Source of the DNA: Candidatus Nomurabacteria bacterium
GTDB lineage: Bacteria; Patescibacteriota; Minisyncoccia; Phycocordibacterales; UBA9973
NCBI GenBank assembly: GCA_026395995.1
Contig: JAPLXQ010000010.1
Span: forward strand, 2,587 to 66,586
DNA: 64,000 nt
Reading direction: 5' to 3'
Shown here one piece after another: positions 3,019 to 58,637 of the stretch; the stretch's first letter is position 1, and each line of letters begins with the position of its first letter. The translations under genes were made by a program, and so were the position numbers. The notes under the pieces were generated by a model. That model did not search any database. It was not told the origin of the DNA and saw only the letters and a program-made list of their open reading frames with translations.

Positions 3019-3894
3019 ATGACTAAATTTATTAGTACATTTTTAATAGCTTTTATTTGTGCCACACTCGGTGTGGCACCACTTTCTGCTATCGCTAAGA
3101 CTGGTGCAAGTAAGACTCAAGCTGAAGCTATAAAACCTGTACGTATTTTGATAGTTCCAGGGCATGACGATGAAGTCTGGGGTGCTCAATATAAAAATAT
3201 GAAAGAAGCTAGTATGACTTTGGCCTTAGGAACACAGATTTATAATTTATTAAAAAAAGACAAAAGATTTGAAGTTTATATCACACGTAATGGTAATGGA
3301 TACACAAAAGATTTTGCCGATTATTTCACGAATCATATGGATGAAATAAAATCTTTTAAACAGATAGCAAAGACACAAATGGCTGGCCAGCTGGCAGCAG
3401 GATTATTTGTTCAGAAAAAAAATACACCACATGCTTCCGTCAAAGAAATTGTAGCAGATAGACTTTATGGTTTGAATAAGTGGGCGAATGAAAATAATAT
3501 CGATGCGATGATTCATATTCACTTTGATGATTATCCACGTCCTCATGCTTGGACAATAGGTGATTATAAAGGTTTTGCTATTTATATGCCTGAGTCACAA
3601 TTCCCTAATGCAGCAAATAGTGCACTTCTTGCTGGTAATATTTTTGCGCAATTAGAAAAAAAATATATTACTAGTACTTATCCAGAAGAGAAAGGGGGAT
3701 TGATACCAGATCAAAAACTTATTGCCCTAGGAGCCAACGACACACTTTTACCCAGCACTCGTAGTGTCTTGGTAGAATACGGATATATTTATCAAAAAAT
3801 ATTCCGAAATAGCACCACTCGCCATCAGGCTTATAAAACCATGGCTGATCTAACTGTAAAAGGAATTATTAATTATTTCTTCCCGAAGAAGTAA
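3019..3894 (+). CDS. Secreted N-acetylmuramoyl-L-alanine amidase-like (Amidase_3 family) protein
   Basis: Signal peptide; PGHDDE...IHIHFDD...GFAIYMPE blocks resemble Amidase_3 (CwlD-like). Confidence 0.45.
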   Translation: MTKFISTFLIAFICATLGVAPLSAIAKTGASKTQAEAIKPVRILIVPGHDDEVWGAQYKNMKEASMTLALGTQIYNLLKKDKRFEVYITRNGNGYTKDFADYFTNHMDEIKSFKQIAKTQMAGQLAAGLFVQKKNTPHASVKEIVADRLYGLNKWANENNIDAMIHIHFDDYPRPHAWTIGDYKGFAIYMPESQFPNAANSALLAGNIFAQLEKKYITSTYPEEKGGLIPDQKLIALGANDTLLPSTRSVLVEYGYIYQKIFRNSTTRHQAYKTMADLTVKGIINYFFPKK

Positions 3895-3932
3895 GTTTGA
3901 CGTCTTATCTATATAAGTATATTATTGGTGTA

Positions 3933-4827: not shown

Positions 4828-4897
4828 AAATTATTTCCCTCCTAAATTCTTAAACGCTTCTTTTATTTTTGCATTAGTGTCGACAGCAGTGACATTT

Positions 4898-5656
4898 GAA
4901 TTACAAGGTCGAACCTTGTAAAAACTTTATTATATTGTTATCATGCATATATGACTAGAAGTATAGAATTTTCTATTGGTGAATTTTATCATCTCTATAA
5001 TAGAGGTACTGAAAAGAGAATCATTTTTAATAATAAAAATGATTATGAAAGATTCACTCTTCTTCTATATTTATGTAATAGCCTGAACAAAGTAGATTTA
5101 GGTGACTACCTAAGACAAGGTCGAACCTTGTTAGAACTTTTTGATTTAGAAAGAAATAACACCTTGGTTGATATCGGTGCATATTGTTTAATGCCAAATC
5201 ATTTCCATATTTTAGTTAAGGAAAAATTAGAGGGAGGAATTAGTTTATTTATGCAAAAACTAACAACAGCATATACTATGTATTTTAATAAAAAATATAA
5301 TCGTACAGGTACCTTATTTCAAGGGAAATTTAAAGGCAAACATGTAATAGGTTACAATTATTTAAAATATTTATTTGCATATATTGGATTAAACCCTATT
5401 AAATTAATAGATAAAAATTGGAAAGAAAATGGAATAAAAAATTTATTGGAAGCAAAAAACTTTTTAAGTAAATATGAATTTTCTAGTTTTGTAGATTTTT
5501 GTGATATATCAAGAAAACAAAAAGTTATTTTAGTGCTGGATAATTTTCCAAAATACTTTCTTTCTAAAAAAGAATTTAATGATTTTATAAATGACTGGTT
5601 GGATTATAGAGAACTAGAATTTTAGTATTTTTTATTTTCCACCAAGAATTTTTAAT
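4898..5656 (+). mobile_element. Insertion carrying a RAYT/IS200-like HUH transposase, bounded by a 42-bp exact (ca. 65-bp degenerate) direct repeat that duplicates the ruvA 3' end
   Basis: Repeat gcttcttttatttttgcattagtgtcgacagcagtgacattt at 4856-4897 and 5657-5698; subterminal hairpin acaaggtcgaaccttgt at 4905-4921. Confidence 0.6.
4951..5625 (+). CDS. HUH (Y1) tyrosine transposase, IS200/IS605 TnpA / REP-associated tyrosine transposase (RAYT)-like
   Basis: YHLYNRG...LMPNHFHILV (HuH) ...YIGLNPIK (cf. RayT DYIYINPVKHG); paralog of 21346-22011. Confidence 0.7.
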   Translation: MTRSIEFSIGEFYHLYNRGTEKRIIFNNKNDYERFTLLLYLCNSLNKVDLGDYLRQGRTLLELFDLERNNTLVDIGAYCLMPNHFHILVKEKLEGGISLFMQKLTTAYTMYFNKKYNRTGTLFQGKFKGKHVIGYNYLKYLFAYIGLNPIKLIDKNWKENGIKNLLEAKNFLSKYEFSSFVDFCDISRKQKVILVLDNFPKYFLSKKEFNDFINDWLDYRELEF

Positions 5657-6204
5657 GCTTCTTTTATTTTTGCATTAGTGTCGACAGCAGTGACATTTTT
5701 CAATGCATCACGAGCTTCATTTTGAGAGTAGCCGAGAGATTTGAGGGCTTCGAGTGCATCCATTTCTTCTTTGAGTGCTCCACCTGTCTTTTCATCTTTA
5801 AATTTGTCTCGAAGTTCGATGACAATTTTTTCGGCGGTTTTTCTACCAATACCAGAAATTTTTGTGAGATAAGAAATATCATTTGTACCGATGGCTTGGC
5901 GGAGAGTCTCAATAGAAGCGACACTCAAAATACCCAAAGCTCCTTTTGGTCCAATACCTGAGACACTGATCAGCATTTCAAAAAATTCCAATTCTTCTCT
6001 GTCGAGGAAACCATAAAGATCGAGGGCGTCTTCGCGGACGATGGTGTGAATCCAAAGAAAGATTTCATCAGACCTCACCCCCTGCCCCCTCTCCTGAAAG
6101 GAGAGGGGTTTATGGATATGTATCTTATAACCGACCCCGTTTGCTTCCACAATAATGAATTTGTCTGTTTTGAGTATTGTTTTGCCTTTTATGCTTCCAA
6201 TCAT
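5632..6204 (-). CDS. ruvA: Holliday junction DNA helicase RuvA, with in-frame GC-rich insertion
   Basis: MIGSIKGK...ANGVGYKI N-terminus, HhH motifs GIGPKGALGIL / GIGRKTAEKI; insertion at 6071-6111 (QERGQGVRS). Confidence 0.85.
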   Translation of the reverse strand: MIGSIKGKTILKTDKFIIVEANGVGYKIHIHKPLSFQERGQGVRSDEIFLWIHTIVREDALDLYGFLDREELEFFEMLISVSGIGPKGALGILSVASIETLRQAIGTNDISYLTKISGIGRKTAEKIVIELRDKFKDEKTGGALKEEMDALEALKSLGYSQNEARDALKNVTAVDTNAKIKEALKILGGK

Positions 6205-11703: not shown

Positions 11704-11732
11704 AAGGTATATTATATCAGACTTACAATACT

Positions 11733-11744
11733 AGCTAGTTACTT
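11733..11744. promoter_or_regulatory. Palindromic 12-mer AACTAGCTAGTT-containing promoter motif upstream of leaderless minus-strand gene (one of four copies)
   Basis: Copies at 11733-11744, 12355-12366, 13269-13280 (variant), 13508-13519; first three followed on the minus strand by TGTAA..TATAAT and ATG within 7-8 nt. Confidence 0.45.
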
Positions 11745-12327: not shown

Positions 12328-12507
12328 AGGTTTATTATAGCAGATTTACACCACTAGCTAGTTAAATAAATCAAATATTAACCGCTAGCAAGGACTGCCC
12401 TTGCTAGTTAATACCTTGTTATCAGGTACGCCTTTTTTATTTTCTACTGTACAAATTAATACAAAGATGTTATCTTGGATTTAGATAAACTCTTAAAAAT
12501 TTGAATT

Positions 12508-12843: not shown

Positions 12844-13517
12844 ATAATTTTTTGCCTAAAAAGCAAAACAGGATAACTATTAGTTATCCTGTTTTTTTGT
12901 TACTGTAATGACATGCAAGACCTGTCAGATTTAGTGCTTTTGTAGCAAGAACCGTTCTTGCTAGTTTTAAAGCTATTGTATTTTTATAACTACTTATGTT
13001 ATAATACAAGTACTGAAAGGCAGAAAATCGGAGTGCTGCCGGCCCATGTGGCTATGGAGGGAATTTCCGTCCTCCCAGAGAAAAACACCCGCAAGGGTGT
13101 TTTTCATTATCTATTTGAGAAGTTTAGCGAGTTTTGACAGTAGTGGAGAAAGTAAAAATACGGCGAGAAAAGACAAAACTGTGTCGAAAATAGTAAAATC
13201 AAAAAAGCGAAAGTGTCTCAAATATTCCAAGGTAATCATATGTTACAGTATAGCAGACTTGTACCACTAGCTAGAACGGTTCTAGTTAGTTAGTTGTATG
13301 ATAAGTAATATAATTCCAAAAATCACCAAAGCACTGATAAGAAATATAAAAAATCTCTTATTATTTATATCATCTTTTACAAAGTTACTATTTGGAAAAA
13401 TTTTTCGCAATAATGTGAAGAAAAACATATATTTATAATAGCAATATACTCATAAAATATCAAATTATGTCGCTAATAGAGAAGTAATAACTATAGCGGA
13501 TTTCTATGACTAGCTAG

Positions 13518-14360
13518 TTATTGTCTTTTTAAGACAGAATCAATTCTTTCTTTACTTTCTTTGTAAGTTTTTTCAATTTCTTCTTCTAAAATTACTTCTT
13601 CAAGTTTACCGCCCTCTTTATCTTTTTCAGTAATAGTTCTTTTTGAAATCATAGCCATAAACAAAACTAAAAATGGTTTTTTCTTTAAAAGCTCTCTTGT
13701 AATACCGTAAATTTCTTTATTTTCTTTAATAAGTTCCTCAGCAAATTTTCTTGCTGTAACAAACTTTTCTTCTAGCTTTATTGTACTTTCTATAAACCAA
13801 CCTGCTGGTAATAATTTATTAATAAATGAGTATTTATATCCATTATAACTATCCATAACAGTTTCGGTACTTTCATTAAATTTTTCTAATTCAGTAAAAA
13901 AACCAAAAAGCTGATTAACTAAATCAATGTTTGATAATTCTAAAAGAACAGATTTGTCGTATATTAAAGGTTTAATTTTATTCGTACATATTAAGGCTTG
14001 ATTTGTATCTTTTGTTTCTTTTATAGTATCTAAAAATGAATCAATAACGAAAATCTTTTGATGGAGTGAGCCAAGAATCCTATTAGCATCATGTTCTATT
14101 TTTACTAAAGCATTATAATGAAGAACCTGTCTTTGGTATATTTTTTCAAAAATTGTCTCAATTCTAATAAATAAAAAAGCAAAAAAAGCCCCTGCAAAAG
14201 AAGTAGCAATAGTAATTCCGACATCGCCATTATGAATACTAGAGACAAAAGCTTTTATAACAAGGATAAAAACTAAAATTATAAAAACTAGTACTAAGAA
14301 AGTCCCCCAACCATAATAAGTTTTCATGAAATTTTTAGCTTGTTTAATATTTAATTTCAT
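13518..14360 (-). CDS. Hypothetical membrane protein (two N-terminal TM helices)
   Basis: ORF track, hydrophobic N-terminus. Confidence 0.4.
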   Translation of the reverse strand: MKLNIKQAKNFMKTYYGWGTFLVLVFIILVFILVIKAFVSSIHNGDVGITIATSFAGAFFAFLFIRIETIFEKIYQRQVLHYNALVKIEHDANRILGSLHQKIFVIDSFLDTIKETKDTNQALICTNKIKPLIYDKSVLLELSNIDLVNQLFGFFTELEKFNESTETVMDSYNGYKYSFINKLLPAGWFIESTIKLEEKFVTARKFAEELIKENKEIYGITRELLKKKPFLVLFMAMISKRTITEKDKEGGKLEEVILEEEIEKTYKESKERIDSVLKRQ

Positions 14361-20634: not shown

Positions 20635-20731
20635 CCCCACTCATATATTAAAATAATTTTCCTTTACAAAATAACTTTATTTTGTTATAGTTTTTTTGAA
20701 ATTACATTGTAAAATTTAATACTATAAAACT

Positions 20732-21235
20732 ATGAAGTTAGATGAAATTTTTAATAAGTATCAGTTAGAGGCCATAACTGTTGATTTTAATTTTACTGAT
20801 AAAAACAATCGTGTTAGTAAATCAATAGAAGAACTTTCCTTAAAAGGAATAAAAGTTAATTCATCGAAACCAGGTTCAATTTCTTTAGAAGAAATAGAAA
20901 GGAGTGACTTTATAAAACTTGATAAGAGTATTATTCTTGCTGTAACAACCTTGCTATTAAATGATAGCTATATTTCATTTGCTGTTGGTTTGGAAAAGTA
21001 TGAAAAAGAAATAATTGAAGAATTAGAAGCCTTTCCGGGGTTCAAAGAGTGGGGTGATTCAAAAATGGAACAAAATAAGCTTATAAAACATCAAAAGTAT
21101 GAAGCAGCTGCAAGAAGAAGAAACATCACAGATTCAATTGCTAAAGAATTTAAAATTGAAGAAAAAAAAGAAGAAATTATTGAAAAATACAAAAAGAAAA
21201 TTCAGGAACAGTATTCGAACCTTTTCATGGAATAG
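20732..21235 (+). CDS. Hypothetical protein; terminator hairpin at 21241-21273
   Basis: ORF track; aaaccttattg...caataaggttttt hairpin. Confidence 0.3.
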   Translation: MKLDEIFNKYQLEAITVDFNFTDKNNRVSKSIEELSLKGIKVNSSKPGSISLEEIERSDFIKLDKSIILAVTTLLLNDSYISFAVGLEKYEKEIIEELEAFPGFKEWGDSKMEQNKLIKHQKYEAAARRRNITDSIAKEFKIEEKKEEIIEKYKKKIQEQYSNLFME

Positions 21236-21283
21236 ATAAAACCTTATTGGGCAAAATACTCAATAAGGTTTTTATTTTGTGCA

Positions 21284-22038
21284 AAACCGCATGAGGGTAG
21301 TCCTCATGCGGTTTTCATTAATATTGAATGTGATATACTTTTAACATGGAACGAAAAGTAAAATTTTCAATAAATGAATATTACCATTTGTACAGTCGAG
21401 GTGTTGAAAAAAGAAAAGTTTTTCTTGACCCAAAAGACCACAAAAGATTTATGGCACTTCTATATATAATGAACAATTCTGAACCTTTTACTTTTGGTAA
21501 TTTTTTAAAACATAATAAGATTGAAGATATTTTCTCTAAAGAAAAAGAAAAAACACTAGTTTCTATTGTAAGTTATACTCTTATGCCAAACCATTTTCAT
21601 TTATTGGTCTATGAAAATGAAGAAGGAGGAATAAGTAAATTTATGAGTCGATTGCTGACTGCGTATTCGATGTATTTTAATACTAAATATAAAAGAAGTG
21701 GTCCTTTATTTGTGCACCCATTTCGTTCTGAACATATTTCAAATGAGTCACAGTATTTATGGATTTTTTCATACATCCATTTAAATCCTATTGGAATTAT
21801 AAAAAAAGACTTTAAAACCAAAGGATTCGGTAATAAAAAAATAGCTCAAAATTTTTTAAAATTATATCAATACTCTAGTTATTATGAATACGAAGGTGGT
21901 AATCGTATTGAATCAAAAATCCTTGACCTTTCTTTGGTACCAGAATATTTACCAAAAATCTCTTTTGATGTTGGAAAATATGAAAAATGGTTTAAAACAG
22001 AAGAAGAGTAACCGCATGAGGGTAGTCCTCATGCGGTT
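21284..22038 (+). mobile_element. RAYT/IS200-like HUH transposase gene bracketed by identical 28-bp hairpin repeats
   Basis: aaccgcatgagggtagtcctcatgcggtt at 21285-21313 and 22010-22038 (palindromic ccgcatgagg/cctcatgcgg). Confidence 0.65.
21346..22011 (+). CDS. HUH (Y1) tyrosine transposase, IS200/IS605 TnpA / RAYT-like (paralog)
   Basis: YHLYSRG...LMPNHFHLLV...SYIHLNPIG; ~45% identical to 4951-5625 product. Confidence 0.7.
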   Translation: MERKVKFSINEYYHLYSRGVEKRKVFLDPKDHKRFMALLYIMNNSEPFTFGNFLKHNKIEDIFSKEKEKTLVSIVSYTLMPNHFHLLVYENEEGGISKFMSRLLTAYSMYFNTKYKRSGPLFVHPFRSEHISNESQYLWIFSYIHLNPIGIIKKDFKTKGFGNKKIAQNFLKLYQYSSYYEYEGGNRIESKILDLSLVPEYLPKISFDVGKYEKWFKTEEE

Positions 22039-22061
22039 AAGAAATATGTTAATATGAATAT

Positions 22062-25174: not shown

Positions 25175-25224
25175 ATACACCCAAATATAAAAAAGTACCC
25201 TAGGGTACTTTTTTATATTTGGGT
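25175..25224. terminator. Long perfect hairpin (bidirectional terminator)
   Basis: cacccaaatataaaaaagtaccctagggtacttttttatatttgggtg. Confidence 0.55.
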
Positions 25225-25295
25225 GCCTTCGGTTGGAATCGAACCAACATCGAAGCCTTAGAAGAGCTCTGTTCTATCCATTGAACTACGAAGGC
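25224..25295 (-). tRNA. tRNA-Arg (anticodon TCT)
   Basis: Acceptor GCCTTCG/CGAAGGC, anticodon loop CTTCTAA, T-arm GTTGGTTCGATTCCAAC. Confidence 0.8.
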
Positions 25296-30249: not shown

Positions 30250-30524
30250 AAGATTTTTGTTATTTTTAATCCTATGAGTAGAAATCAAAAATCCCACCAC
30301 ATAGGTGAGAGCTTTCGCTCTCTGCATCCGTTTCCAGATACAGCTCGTCAAAGCATCCCTATATGATGGGGTTTCTAGCTTTGACGAGACTTTCGGCCAT
30401 GTCTTTATTTCTAAAGGGTTAGGCCACTTATATATTAAATTGTATGTTTATGATAACATATTTATATCTCTTATTGAATTAACTATTTACTTTAAGTCGG
30501 GGATACACCGCTTATTGAATATCA

Positions 30525-37798: not shown

Positions 37799-40700
37799 AT
37801 GTTTGGAAAATTTTCAAAATTTCGTTTTTTAACCCAAAGCCTAATTGTAGTTTTAATCATAGCTACAGGGTTTTCTTTTTTTTTAAATAATGCACATTCT
37901 TATACTGGATTAATTTACGTATCTAATATTAATTCTAGCTCATTCTCATCACCTGTAGGTATTGCAAAAGATTCATCTGGAAATATTTACGTAATTGATA
38001 AAGTTGATAATACTGTTAAAAAATTCGATTCAAATGAAAATTTATTAACATCATGGGGTGGTACAGGTACAACAGAAAATAAACTTAATTTTCCTGTAAG
38101 TATTACTGTTGACCCATCAGGTCATGTATATGTTTTAGAACTTACAAATTCTCGCATCCAAGAATTTGAATCAGATGGAACTTTTATAAAAATGTTTGGC
38201 TGGGGTGTCCAAGATGGTACAAACACTTTTCAAGTTTGTACTTCAGGCTGCCAGGCTGGAGTTATGAGTATAGGTAATTTTTATTTTAGTTCATATAGTG
38301 GTATTGCGGCAGATTCCTCGGGTAATATTTATATTACTGAGTATGGTTATAATCGTGTTTCAGAATTCGACTCAAACGGAATTTTCGTAAAAACATTCGG
38401 CTGGGGTGTTTTGACAGGAGGTGCTTCTTTTGAAACATGTTTTTCTAGTTGTTTGAGTGGTGTCTCTGGTCATGGTGTTGGTCAATTTAACAATCCTACT
38501 GGTATGGCTATTGATTCTTTGAATCATATTTATATTTCAGATGGTGCGAATTCTAATGGACGCATCCAAGAATTTGAATCAGATGGAACTTTTATAAAAA
38601 TGTTTGGCTGGGGTGTCCAAGATGGTACAAACACTTTTCAAGTTTGTACTTCAGGCTGCCAGGCTGGGATATTGGGTTATGGAAATGGCCAATTTTATTG
38701 GCCACAAGCTATTGGTATTGATAGTAGTAATAATGTGTATGTCACAGATATAAATGTGAGAGATATTCAAGAATTCGATTCAAATGGAAACTTTATTATA
38801 AAAGTCGGACAGGGTGGTGGAACTCCAGGGACAATACCAAACCCAATGGGTTTAATCATAAATACAGCTGGTTATATTTATGAAGCAGATTATTATTTCC
38901 CAGCTGTTCAAAAATTTAAAATAGATGCCATCCCAGTAATTTCTAGTCTTAGTCTAAATACAATACCAGCAGGAAGTCCTGATACAACTATCGATATTTT
39001 AGGAGAAGATTTTAATGTAGCATCTATAGTTCGTTTTAATGGAATTGATCATACTCCTACATTTATAGGTAGTGATCATTTGCAAGTAGATTTTTTATCA
39101 GCATCTGATTTTAATATAGCTGGTAATTATCCAGTTACTGTTTTTAATTCATCACCAGATATCTCTTCAGCTTCTTCTGTTTTTAATGTTAGTGATAATC
39201 CTACTGTTACTATTGTACCTTCGGCTGTTTTTTCTAATAGAAATATTACTGATAACATTGTTCATGTTGTAGGTACCATAACACCAATATTACCGAGCCA
39301 GGTTTCAATTCATGGTGATACTACTGCTGGTGCTACAAATTTGCGCTGCACTCAAATAGATACTTTTTCGGTTGATTGTCTTGTGGACGTTACTTCAAGT
39401 GGACTTCTTTATGTAAGTGCAACAAATGGAATAAATACGACAAAAAGTTCGGCAGCTTCTTTTTCTATTGACCCACTGTTCCAAATTGAGATAAGCCCAT
39501 TATCAATGTCTTCAGCAAATATGATACCTGTAACCATTCATGTGACAGATGATAACACTATCGATGTTGGAAATGTATACGATGGTGGTATTACCGCAGG
39601 CTATTCTGATTTTTTGTGTACCCAATTTGACCCTAATACTGTTAATTGTGATTTAAACATTACTTCAAGTGGTGATTTAATTATTTCTGCTGATGATAAT
39701 GTTGGTAATAGTGTGACCAGTCAAACAATTACTTATATTATTGGTCCTCCAATAATTAATGTGACATTGCATACACTAGCTTCTCATAGCACAATTTCTG
39801 ATACGACTATTCATATTACAGATGATAATGCTATTGATTTTGGTAATATTACGGTGAGTGGTTTGTCGACTGCAAATACTTCAAATTTAAATTGTGTTCA
39901 AACTGATTCTAAAACAGTTGATTGTTCTATTAAAATTACTTCGAGTGGAACTTTAATAATTCATGCAATTGATAATGCTGGGAATATTGCTAATAGTGAT
40001 GCAGTTACTTATTCTATAACACCACCACCTCATGGTGGTTGTATTAACAACTGTAATCCTACACCAAACCCCTGCCTAGCAAACCCAGCCCTACCACAAT
40101 GTCCAAATCATTGTCTCTTTAACCCCACATTATCAGATTGTCATGTAGTAGATCCTTGTACTTTAAACCCATCACTCTGTATTGTTCCACCACCAATCAA
40201 AACATGTGCAAACACTCCATCAATGTGTCCTCCACCTCCACCACCACATAATCCACCACCAAACGGAAGTCCTTCAAATACAACAACAGTCACACCACCA
40301 ACAAAACCAACAGTAACTCCACCAATACCAATACAAACACCAAAGCCTACTCCAATATCTCCAATCAAAACATTTCTAAAAACAGTCGCAGCTAAAATCA
40401 TATTAGTCACAGTCGCTTCTACAGCCTTAGCTACCACCATGGCTTCTACTCCAATGTCCATGTGGCGTTCAATGCTCTCATTCCTCGCTGTACGTAAACG
40501 AAAACCATGGGGAGTAGTATATGACTCAATTACAAAACAACCACTCGATCCAGCATATGTAGTCCTTCAAGATATTAATGGTACTGAAATCAACACAGCC
40601 ATCACAGACCTAGACGGTAGATATGGCTTCTTCTTAAATCCTGGAATGTACAAACTGATTGCCAACAAAACAAACTACATCTTCCCATCAGCTAAACTAC

Positions 40701-58552: not shown

Positions 58553-58637
58553 AAATCGTTAGGCAAGACCTAGCGATTTTCAGTTTTCCACCATTACATC
58601 TTGAAAAAGTAAAATCTCAGGATTATAATTTATATTA

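Follow-up and report, generated by a model that had tools for sequence, protein, structure and literature searches.

A hairpin-bracketed gene for a RAYT-like Y1 HUH protein in Candidatus Nomurabacteria: a probable REPtron/TIRtron-type unit belonging to a large family of candidate-phyla bacteria

What kind of genetic unit is formed when a gene for a transposase-like protein lies between two copies of one hairpin? The question is raised by a locus in a 64,000-nt stretch of Candidatus Nomurabacteria DNA (assembly GCA_026395995.1, contig JAPLXQ010000010.1, positions 2,587 to 66,586), hereafter called the window and numbered from its first nucleotide. A 221-aa protein resembling the transposases associated with repetitive extragenic palindromes (REPs), known as RAYTs, is encoded there between two identical hairpins. 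The locus is probably a unit of the REPtron/TIRtron type, that is, a gene for a RAYT-like single-stranded DNA (ssDNA) endonuclease of TnpAY1 class 2 together with two hairpin copies recognised by its product, and not an element of the IS200 type. Its parts are as follows.

21285-21313, plus strand: upstream cognate hairpin; stem reaching 21283-21315 with A/T pairs; loop GTAGT, apex AGG-N5-CCT; match to covariance model R1 with E 6e-6; also scores as terminator-like.
21346-22011, plus strand: Y1 HUH gene, RAYT-like, TnpAY1 class 2; 221 aa; HUH motif H83 F84 H85; catalytic Y143 in YIHLNP; SS motif at residues 177-178.
22010-22038, plus strand: downstream cognate hairpin; overlaps the TAA stop codon (22009-22011); apex at about +1 from the stop, the position typical of the family.

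The first-pass annotation of this DNA had described identical 28-bp hairpin palindromes precisely bracketing the gene. Two exact copies of AACCGCATGAGGGTAGTCCTCATGCGGTT do flank the gene, both on the plus strand; each is 29 nt long and folds into a 12-bp stem with an asymmetric 5-nt loop, so the copies are direct repeats and not perfect palindromes. The upstream copy, said to lie immediately upstream, is indeed on that side and ends 32 nt 5′ of the ATG, and the downstream copy does not follow the stop codon, as had been thought, but overlaps it. With flanking A/T pairs counted, the stem is 14 bp in the upstream copy and 13 bp in the downstream copy. Folding as ssDNA gave -26.5 and -15.5 kcal/mol (z = -9.2 and -8.6 against shuffles). 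No further match to AACCGCATGAGGGTAGTCCTCATGCGGTT was found in the window at up to 3 mismatches (0 expected, 100 shuffles), exact scans with the 23-nt core detected no copy in JGI metagenome contigs or in viral contigs, and no Rfam family matched either hairpin. In a relative with 95.5% nucleotide identity (loci L083 and L084), 10 nt of the 5′ arm are tandemly duplicated in the downstream hairpin (ACCGCATGAG ACCGCATGAGG...), the upstream copy being unchanged.

The 221-aa protein matched Pfam PF01797 (Y1_Tnp; 35.3 bits, cutoff 23) and no other Pfam family. Together with the HUH motif, Y143 and a second paralog that is 44.6% identical, this agrees with its earlier description as an HUH transposase paralog. 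H83, F84, H85 and Y143 were invariant in an alignment of 29 family members. In a Foldseek search of PDB, the AlphaFold model (pLDDT 77.8) matched IS608 TnpA (2vic; E 8.6e-4) and the E. coli REP-associated transposase (4er8; E 9.1e-4; TM 0.62, normalised to the target) with a probability of 1.00; by sequence alone, the best PDB match had an E of about 0.6 (ISDra2 TnpA). NCBIfam NF047646 (REP_Tyr_transpos) gave 39.8 bits for the 221-aa protein and a second score of 34.7 bits, both below the cutoff of 80. Compared with the 95.5% identical relative, the gene showed a dN/dS of 0.19 and its product was 97% identical. The G+C content of the window is 33.7%.

A protein search returned 3189 relatives, mostly unnamed proteins; almost all belong to Paceibacteria, Nomurabacteria and further candidate-phyla bacteria. 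In a GTDB set with one genome per species, 528 loci encoded a relative, and 80 of these were fetched for locus analysis. The window itself holds a second family member.

4951-5625, plus strand: paralog 1; 224 aa; 44.6% identical to the 221-aa protein; YIGLNP; with its own, different hairpin.
4901-4921, plus strand: paralog-1 cognate hairpin, TTACAAGGTCGAACCTTGTAA; 30 nt before the ATG of paralog 1.

The core of the paralog-1 hairpin, ACAAGGTCGAACCTTGT, occurs again at 5115-5131 inside the paralog-1 reading frame, specifying the residues RQGRTLL in a variable part of the protein; this recalls the in-frame REP insertions of TnpAY1 subclass 2.4.

Bracketing was examined across the family by aligning the 370 nt before each homolog locally with the 390 nt after it, mismatched loci serving as the null. 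The best upstream/downstream match was a hairpin in most of 78 loci and often exceeded the 99th percentile of the null (22); an independent search for the longest stem gave the same picture. Bracket zones contained at least one AGG-N5-CCT hairpin in 75 of the 80 loci, and 52 had it on both sides. The position was also fixed: relative to the ATG, the upstream apex had a median start of -45 (interquartile range -45 to -40), and the downstream apex began at +1 after the stop codon.

An alignment of 114 distinct hairpins (A2) was built with the AGG-N5-CCT pattern. It contained 336 double-sided changes, compared with 135 in shuffles (0 of 500 shuffles reached 336), and the signal collapsed in slid-alignment controls. 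Pair 7-25, which the selection did not force, was paired in all 114 hairpins and occurred as four pair types. The flanks (columns 1-4 and 28-31 of A2; n = 114) were not conserved, and the GT[AG]G foot of canonical REPs was absent there; a GTAG-like sequence sits instead in the loop, where the motif is G[TG]AGT or ACT[AC]C under the AGG/CCT apex. Left and right copies of the same locus differed at 0.19 positions per 19 core nt, whereas orthologous hairpins at 35-45% protein divergence differed at 5.5 positions per 19 core nt; the pair is therefore kept alike while its sequence drifts. Protein and hairpin divergence were correlated (Spearman 0.53; 0 of 300 permutations), and in genomes with two paralogs (the window and eight others) each paralog had a different hairpin. 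These results show that the hairpin bracket is a family-wide feature of fixed position, the structure of which is maintained through compensatory changes.

Hairpins of this class were also found away from the gene. With stems of at least 7 bp, 142 were located in bracket zones (about 25 kb) and 36 elsewhere (about 545 kb of flanks), an enrichment of roughly 85-fold; many of the 36 had the sequence of the local cognate hairpin. When the commonest hairpin, GAGCRAGGACTMCCCTYGCTC, was scanned in metagenome contigs, at least 120 stretches were obtained, and 80 loci were read. These held 106 class hairpins, 30 flanking a homolog and 47 being internal orphans with no homolog nearby. Labels placing 20 metagenome orphans inside genes came from crude calling of open reading frames (ORFs) and were not used. 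Many metagenome orphans lie just after gene ends, and one 82-kb contig carried 2 bracket copies and 2 orphan copies. In the window, covariance model R1 recovered the hairpins of both paralogs, a weaker variant at 12938-12968, and two orphans.

12385-12407, no strand assigned: orphan hairpin of the same class, CTAGCAAGG ACTGC CCTTGCTAG; no adjacent RAYT-like gene; best R1 match in the window, E 5e-6.
58553-58579, no strand assigned: orphan hairpin of the AGG-CAAGA-CCT subclass; one T-G mismatch; no adjacent RAYT-like gene; R1 E 0.02.

The stems and loops (ACTGC, CAAGA) of these orphans are unlike those of the hairpins of the two paralogs. The orphan at 12385-12407 lies in a region where "group B" relatives hold a RAYT-like gene, and it may be a relic of a lost gene copy. 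Five AGG-N5-CCT hairpins were counted in the 64 kb, three in the bracket zones of the two genes and one inside the coding sequence of paralog 1. At the family level, the hairpin class is dispersed like REPs. Searching for other copies as a REP family, which had been proposed with the first-pass annotation, gave a divided answer: family hairpins are common as orphans, and for the exact hairpin of the 221-aa gene neither the window nor the JGI metagenome and viral collections yielded a third copy.

The upstream hairpin is also placed within putative signals for expression of the gene.

21312-21339, plus strand: putative promoter from a consensus scan; -35 TTTTCA (21312-21317) over the hairpin foot, 16-nt spacer, TG-extended -10 TATACT (21334-21339), ATG 6 nt on.

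Two boxes were conserved among 69 homologous loci: TATAAT, at -12 to -7 relative to the ATG, and TTG, at -35 to -33 and within the 3′ arm of the upstream hairpin. Judged from sequence, these positions would suit a standard sigma-70 promoter that has its -35 box within the hairpin and gives rise to a leaderless mRNA. If so, the upstream hairpin is outside the mRNA of the gene, which argues against a role of this copy at the RNA level in that transcript.

The history of the locus was traced by comparison with its nearest relatives. The features concerned are the following.

20635-22061, no strand assigned: lineage-specific segment of about 1.43 kb, from the stop of a tRNA_bind-domain gene to the ATG of dedA; holds the 167-aa ORF, its terminator and the hairpin-gene-hairpin unit.
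20732-21235, plus strand: 167-aa ORF; inside the inserted segment, outside the hairpin bracket; no Pfam family.
21238-21272, plus strand: terminator-like hairpin of the 167-aa ORF, distinct from the cognate hairpin.

The three nearest relatives, identified through their DedA homologs P0124, P0125 and P0128 (79, 76 and 71% identical), have the gene order RuvX, tRNA_bind gene, dedA, pilM, the tRNA_bind stop and the start of dedA being separated by only 8, 0 and 6 nt. They contain neither the 167-aa ORF nor a RAYT-like gene at this site, and no hairpin where DNA was available (L223-L225). Window positions 20635-22061 are therefore a lineage-specific gain. The relative at 95.5% nucleotide identity (L083/L084) has retained the segment, hairpins included. 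Conserved synteny in relatives, named beforehand, along with absence of the hairpin elsewhere, as the sign of a domesticated gene rather than a mobile unit, was not observed for the 221-aa gene, given the empty site in the three relatives. Insertion into a pre-existing hairpin was ruled out at this locus, since the empty sites lack one. The 167-aa ORF was found in the same lineage only (79% identical there, with changes clustering in the C-terminal third), and it was rejected as a recurrent partner on that account.

Elsewhere in the family, clustering of neighbouring genes revealed several orthologous positions, of which DsbA-like / gene / rpoD-dnaG was common to about 15 distant genomes. Where two loci of a genome had been fetched, each paralog occupied a different position, and the closest homologs of the 221-aa protein sit in other contexts. 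The two most widely seen proteins, P0034 and P0087, were present on at least 24 contigs each, identical proteins always having the same neighbours, so there is no sign of recent transposition. Near-identical gene copies were found neither in the window nor in genomes with two paralogs. Low copy number, divergent paralogs and vertical inheritance, by which RAYTs are recognised, thus hold at the family level; the 221-aa copy itself is a lineage-specific gain.

Among known systems, the REPtrons (RAYT/TnpA-REP, as E. coli rayT/yafM with PDB 4ER8, and those of Pseudomonas and Stenotrophomonas) share with the present family a Y1 HUH protein with a Y---NP motif, few and divergent paralogs, a palindromic repeat proper to each gene and present elsewhere without it, stable inheritance of many loci, and the fold matched by 4er8. 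They differ in several respects. The candidate-phyla hairpins have the G[TG]AGT or ACT[AC]C loop motif in place of the GT[AG]G foot, and their stems are perfect, of 9-14 bp and without a bulge, with one hairpin per side rather than REPIN clusters. The 221-aa protein is about 55 aa longer and scores 39.8 against the cutoff of 80 on REP_Tyr_transpos, and neither the window nor the metagenome and viral contigs scanned yielded any copy of its hairpin other than the two flanks. A trait of RAYT/TnpA-REP is that a folded ssDNA repeat is bound, cut and rejoined in a strand-specific manner (assays: PMC8266576); the importance of the GT[AG]G foot varies among the three REPtrons studied, and loop positions are critical in group 3 REPs.

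The Y---NP motif fits a protein of TnpAY1 class 2, closest to subclass 2.1, judging by sequence motifs. This subclass (Quentin et al. 2018, PMC6006769) corresponds to Group 1 RAYT (Bertels et al. 2017, PMC5581495) and to most TIRYT/TIRtrons (Di Nocera et al. 2013, PMC3733652). Its motifs are NH[YF]H, FQ, Y[IV]HLNP and an SS proximal tail (Table 1 of PMC6006769). Compared by motif only, the 221-aa protein has NHFH, FV (FT in many homologs, FQ in paralog 1), YIHLNP and YSSY; the set NHFH, F[VTQ], YIHLNP and SS fits the subclass. The nearest annotated relatives, in plasmids, are also of a kind typical of the subclass, namely 287-295-aa proteins with Y1_Tnp and Bac_DnaA_C domains. Unlike these, the candidate-phyla proteins have no DnaA_C-like helix-turn-helix domain at the C terminus (the alignment with two relatives that bear Bac_DnaA_C stops about 75-80 residues short of the C termini of those relatives) and carry a 25-aa insertion after the first helix. 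A further difference concerns the repeats: subclass 2.1 has been reported to be without REP-like sequences nearby (PMC6006769) and Group 1 RAYT to have only slightly enriched flanking 16-mers (PMC5581495), whereas the hairpin bracket is near-universal in the candidate-phyla family. TIRtrons may have partly self-complementary flanking repeats belonging to moderately abundant families (PMC3733652), but the flanking repeats described here do not fit the GGGGWSAS TIR consensus.

The first-pass annotation had taken hairpin-flanked HUH transposases as the hallmark of REP/RAYT units and of IS200/IS605 ends. The former half of that view holds at the family level, by virtue of the bracketed homologs, the codivergence of hairpin and protein, the paralog-specific hairpins and the orphans; at the level of the single locus it is weakened by an exact hairpin without a third copy in the window or the JGI metagenome and viral scans, a score below the RAYT cutoff and the absence of a GT[AG]G foot. 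The view of the hairpins as ends of an IS200/IS605 element is not supported, because the protein has YIHLNP and not Y---Q, near-identical copies are lacking, and identical proteins always occur in one context.

In a REPtron/TIRtron-type unit, the protein would bind the hairpin in its folded ssDNA form, contacting the loop and the conserved AGG/CCT apex, and by analogy to E. coli TnpA-REP it may cleave and rejoin it. Such cleavage and rejoining would spread or homogenise hairpin copies and occasionally move the whole unit. With the upstream hairpin over the -35 box, binding of the protein would autoregulate the leaderless transcript, and the downstream hairpin would end that transcript.

Several points weigh against assigning the locus to this type. 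Binding and cleavage of the hairpin by the protein are proposed on the strength of sequence. The protein falls under the NCBIfam RAYT cutoff and the hairpins have no GT[AG]G foot. The hairpin of the 221-aa gene is present in the 64 kb only as its two flanking copies, so dissemination in trans lacks support for this paralog, and the metagenome orphans, having been drawn from many different metagenomes, give no copy number per genome. The invariance of AGG/CCT in A2 stems partly from the way the hairpins were selected, although the alignment-based and longest-stem searches, which are free of that bias, returned the same apex. Shared descent alone could produce the correlation between protein and hairpin divergence. 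Finally, the loop orientation of left and right copies is near random (29 loci the same, 22 flipped), which is awkward for a strictly strand-specific enzyme.

Of the other explanations, the first arises from duplicated gene ends beside the hairpins. Paralog 1 is bracketed by a 67-nt direct repeat, 88% identical, the right copy of which is the 3′ end of ruvA (minus strand).

4831-4897, plus strand: orphan duplicate of the last 67 nt of ruvA; abuts the paralog-1 upstream hairpin; paired with the genuine ruvA 3′ end (5632-5698).

The orphan copy still encodes NVTAVDTNAKIKEAFKNLGGK followed by the stop, and all 8 mismatches fall in the 26 nt nearest the stop codon. With hairpins masked, a like geometry was seen for rpoD in L036 (3890-3945/4709-4764) and L021 (3724-3753/4716-4745) and for an ABC-F gene in L032 (3776-3802/4714-4740). 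At all four loci, 0-3 nt separate the end of the orphan copy from a family hairpin, and the stop codon of the target marks the start of the functional copy. The duplicated 3′ ends of convergent genes suggest, from their sequence, an insertion with a target duplication of 27-67 nt. No target duplication is made in IS200/IS605 transposition. The ruvA-type repeats may go back to a staggered cut that left a long duplication, or to a circle, delimited by hairpins and carrying the gene end, that integrated by homology. Tandem duplication followed by deletion was rejected as the origin of the ruvA repeat, as one more hairpin would then be expected left of the orphan copy and none is present. An apparently duplicated upstream hairpin in L032 proved to be a scaffolding artefact, the public record having a run of N at about 3824-3923 between identical 48-nt sequences.

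These observations could mean that the hairpin-bracketed units are a distinct Y1 HUH element in which the whole unit rarely moves, by a route outside the described IS200/IS605 or RAYT systems. The hairpin foot would be the end of the element, which would insert at the stop codon of a convergent gene, duplicating its last 27-67 nt and keeping the gene intact; alternatively, a hairpin-to-hairpin circle with a gene end would integrate by homology. In either case the hairpin would double as the operator of the leaderless promoter. This explanation, which follows from the identical geometry at three independent target genes (ruvA, rpoD and ABC-F) and from the empty site of the 221-aa copy, is considered unlikely.

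It is quite unlikely that the 754-bp hairpin-gene-hairpin segment is an autonomous insertion sequence of the IS200 type, with the hairpins as its ends and transposition via a single-stranded circle. The layout does resemble IS200: a unit of about 0.7 kb with a single Y1 HUH gene and like-oriented subterminal hairpins at both ends, the upstream one of a kind that can block read-through transcription. The unit also lies in DNA absent from the nearest relatives, the closest protein homologs are in other contexts, and the four orphan gene ends stop 0-3 nt from the upstream hairpin, as if the hairpin foot were the end of an element. IS200 transposases, however, have Y---Q and about 150 aa, whereas the present protein has the class 2 motif YIHLNP and 221 aa. 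IS200 occurs as multiple near-identical copies, but here the copies are single, divergent and often syntenic across genomes, with none near-identical in the window or in two-paralog genomes, P0034 and P0087 confined to one context on their 24 or more contigs each, and about 15 loci at the DsbA-like / gene / rpoD-dnaG position in distant genomes. In addition, what was inserted measures 1.43 kb and carries, beyond the bracket, an unrelated ORF, and the empty sites have no hairpin or defined target.

Alternatively, the hairpins could be ordinary transcription signals, a bidirectional terminator with a -35 box upstream and a terminator downstream, made alike by gene conversion, with the HUH protein acting on some other substrate. 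Both copies do score as terminator-like and have A/T runs, a well-spaced promoter takes its TTG from the upstream hairpin, and many orphans are found just after gene ends. On the other hand, a separate terminator-like hairpin at 21238-21272 already follows the upstream 167-aa ORF, which therefore does not need the cognate hairpin for that purpose. There is no reason why ordinary terminators should have the same sequence before and after a gene or differ between paralogs of the same genome. The AGG-N5-CCT apex is no general feature of terminators here, 4 of the 5 such hairpins in the 64 kb are tied to the two genes, and the bracket zones are enriched roughly 85-fold over the flanks. Taken with these points, transcription signals are a very unlikely explanation of the pair. 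That chance or misassembly lies behind the two 29-mers is hardly conceivable, since none were expected in 100 shuffles, the same arrangement is present in the independent assemblies L001, L002, L083 and L084 and across about 80 loci, and no supporting point was found.

Other features of the window were also recorded. A 29-nt motif, TATAGCAGATTTACACCACTAGCTAGTTA, occurs in four copies (11713-11741, 12336-12364, 13249-13277 and 13492-13520), each just upstream of the start of a minus-strand gene; read on the minus strand it gives CTAGCTAG and then a TATAAT-like box, and it looks like a shared promoter or operator. A perfect 48-nt palindrome at 25178-25225, with 24-nt arms and no spacer, overlaps by its last two bases the end of a minus-strand tRNA gene (25224-25295). 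Positions 30307-30425 (minus strand) gave a full-length match to the Rfam LOOT RNA with 88 bits (gathering score 46.4). Positions 37954-38817 hold repeats recurring about every 201-207 nt, among them a 126-nt pair 408 nt apart with 93% identity, and probably encode repeated protein modules.

The leading example of a domesticated transposase that coexists with miniature repeats of its own is REP/RAYT, the study of which has so far been almost confined to Proteobacteria, Cyanobacteria and Bacteroidetes; a literature search found no paper linking RAYTs or REPs to Paceibacteria or other candidate-phyla bacteria. The present finding points to an apparently undescribed family with over 3000 member proteins, encoded by Paceibacteria (candidate phyla radiation), whose genomes are reduced. 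Its hairpins represent a new type, marked by an apex-and-loop signature and lacking the GTAG foot, and they form a matched pair at most gene copies and appear to be built into the promoter of the gene. The family is related to a large RAYT subclass (2.1/Group 1) that had been reported without associated repeats. It would offer a comparative system for the recognition of DNA by these nucleases, for the upkeep of likeness between hairpin copies, and for the retention of several copies despite strong genome reduction.

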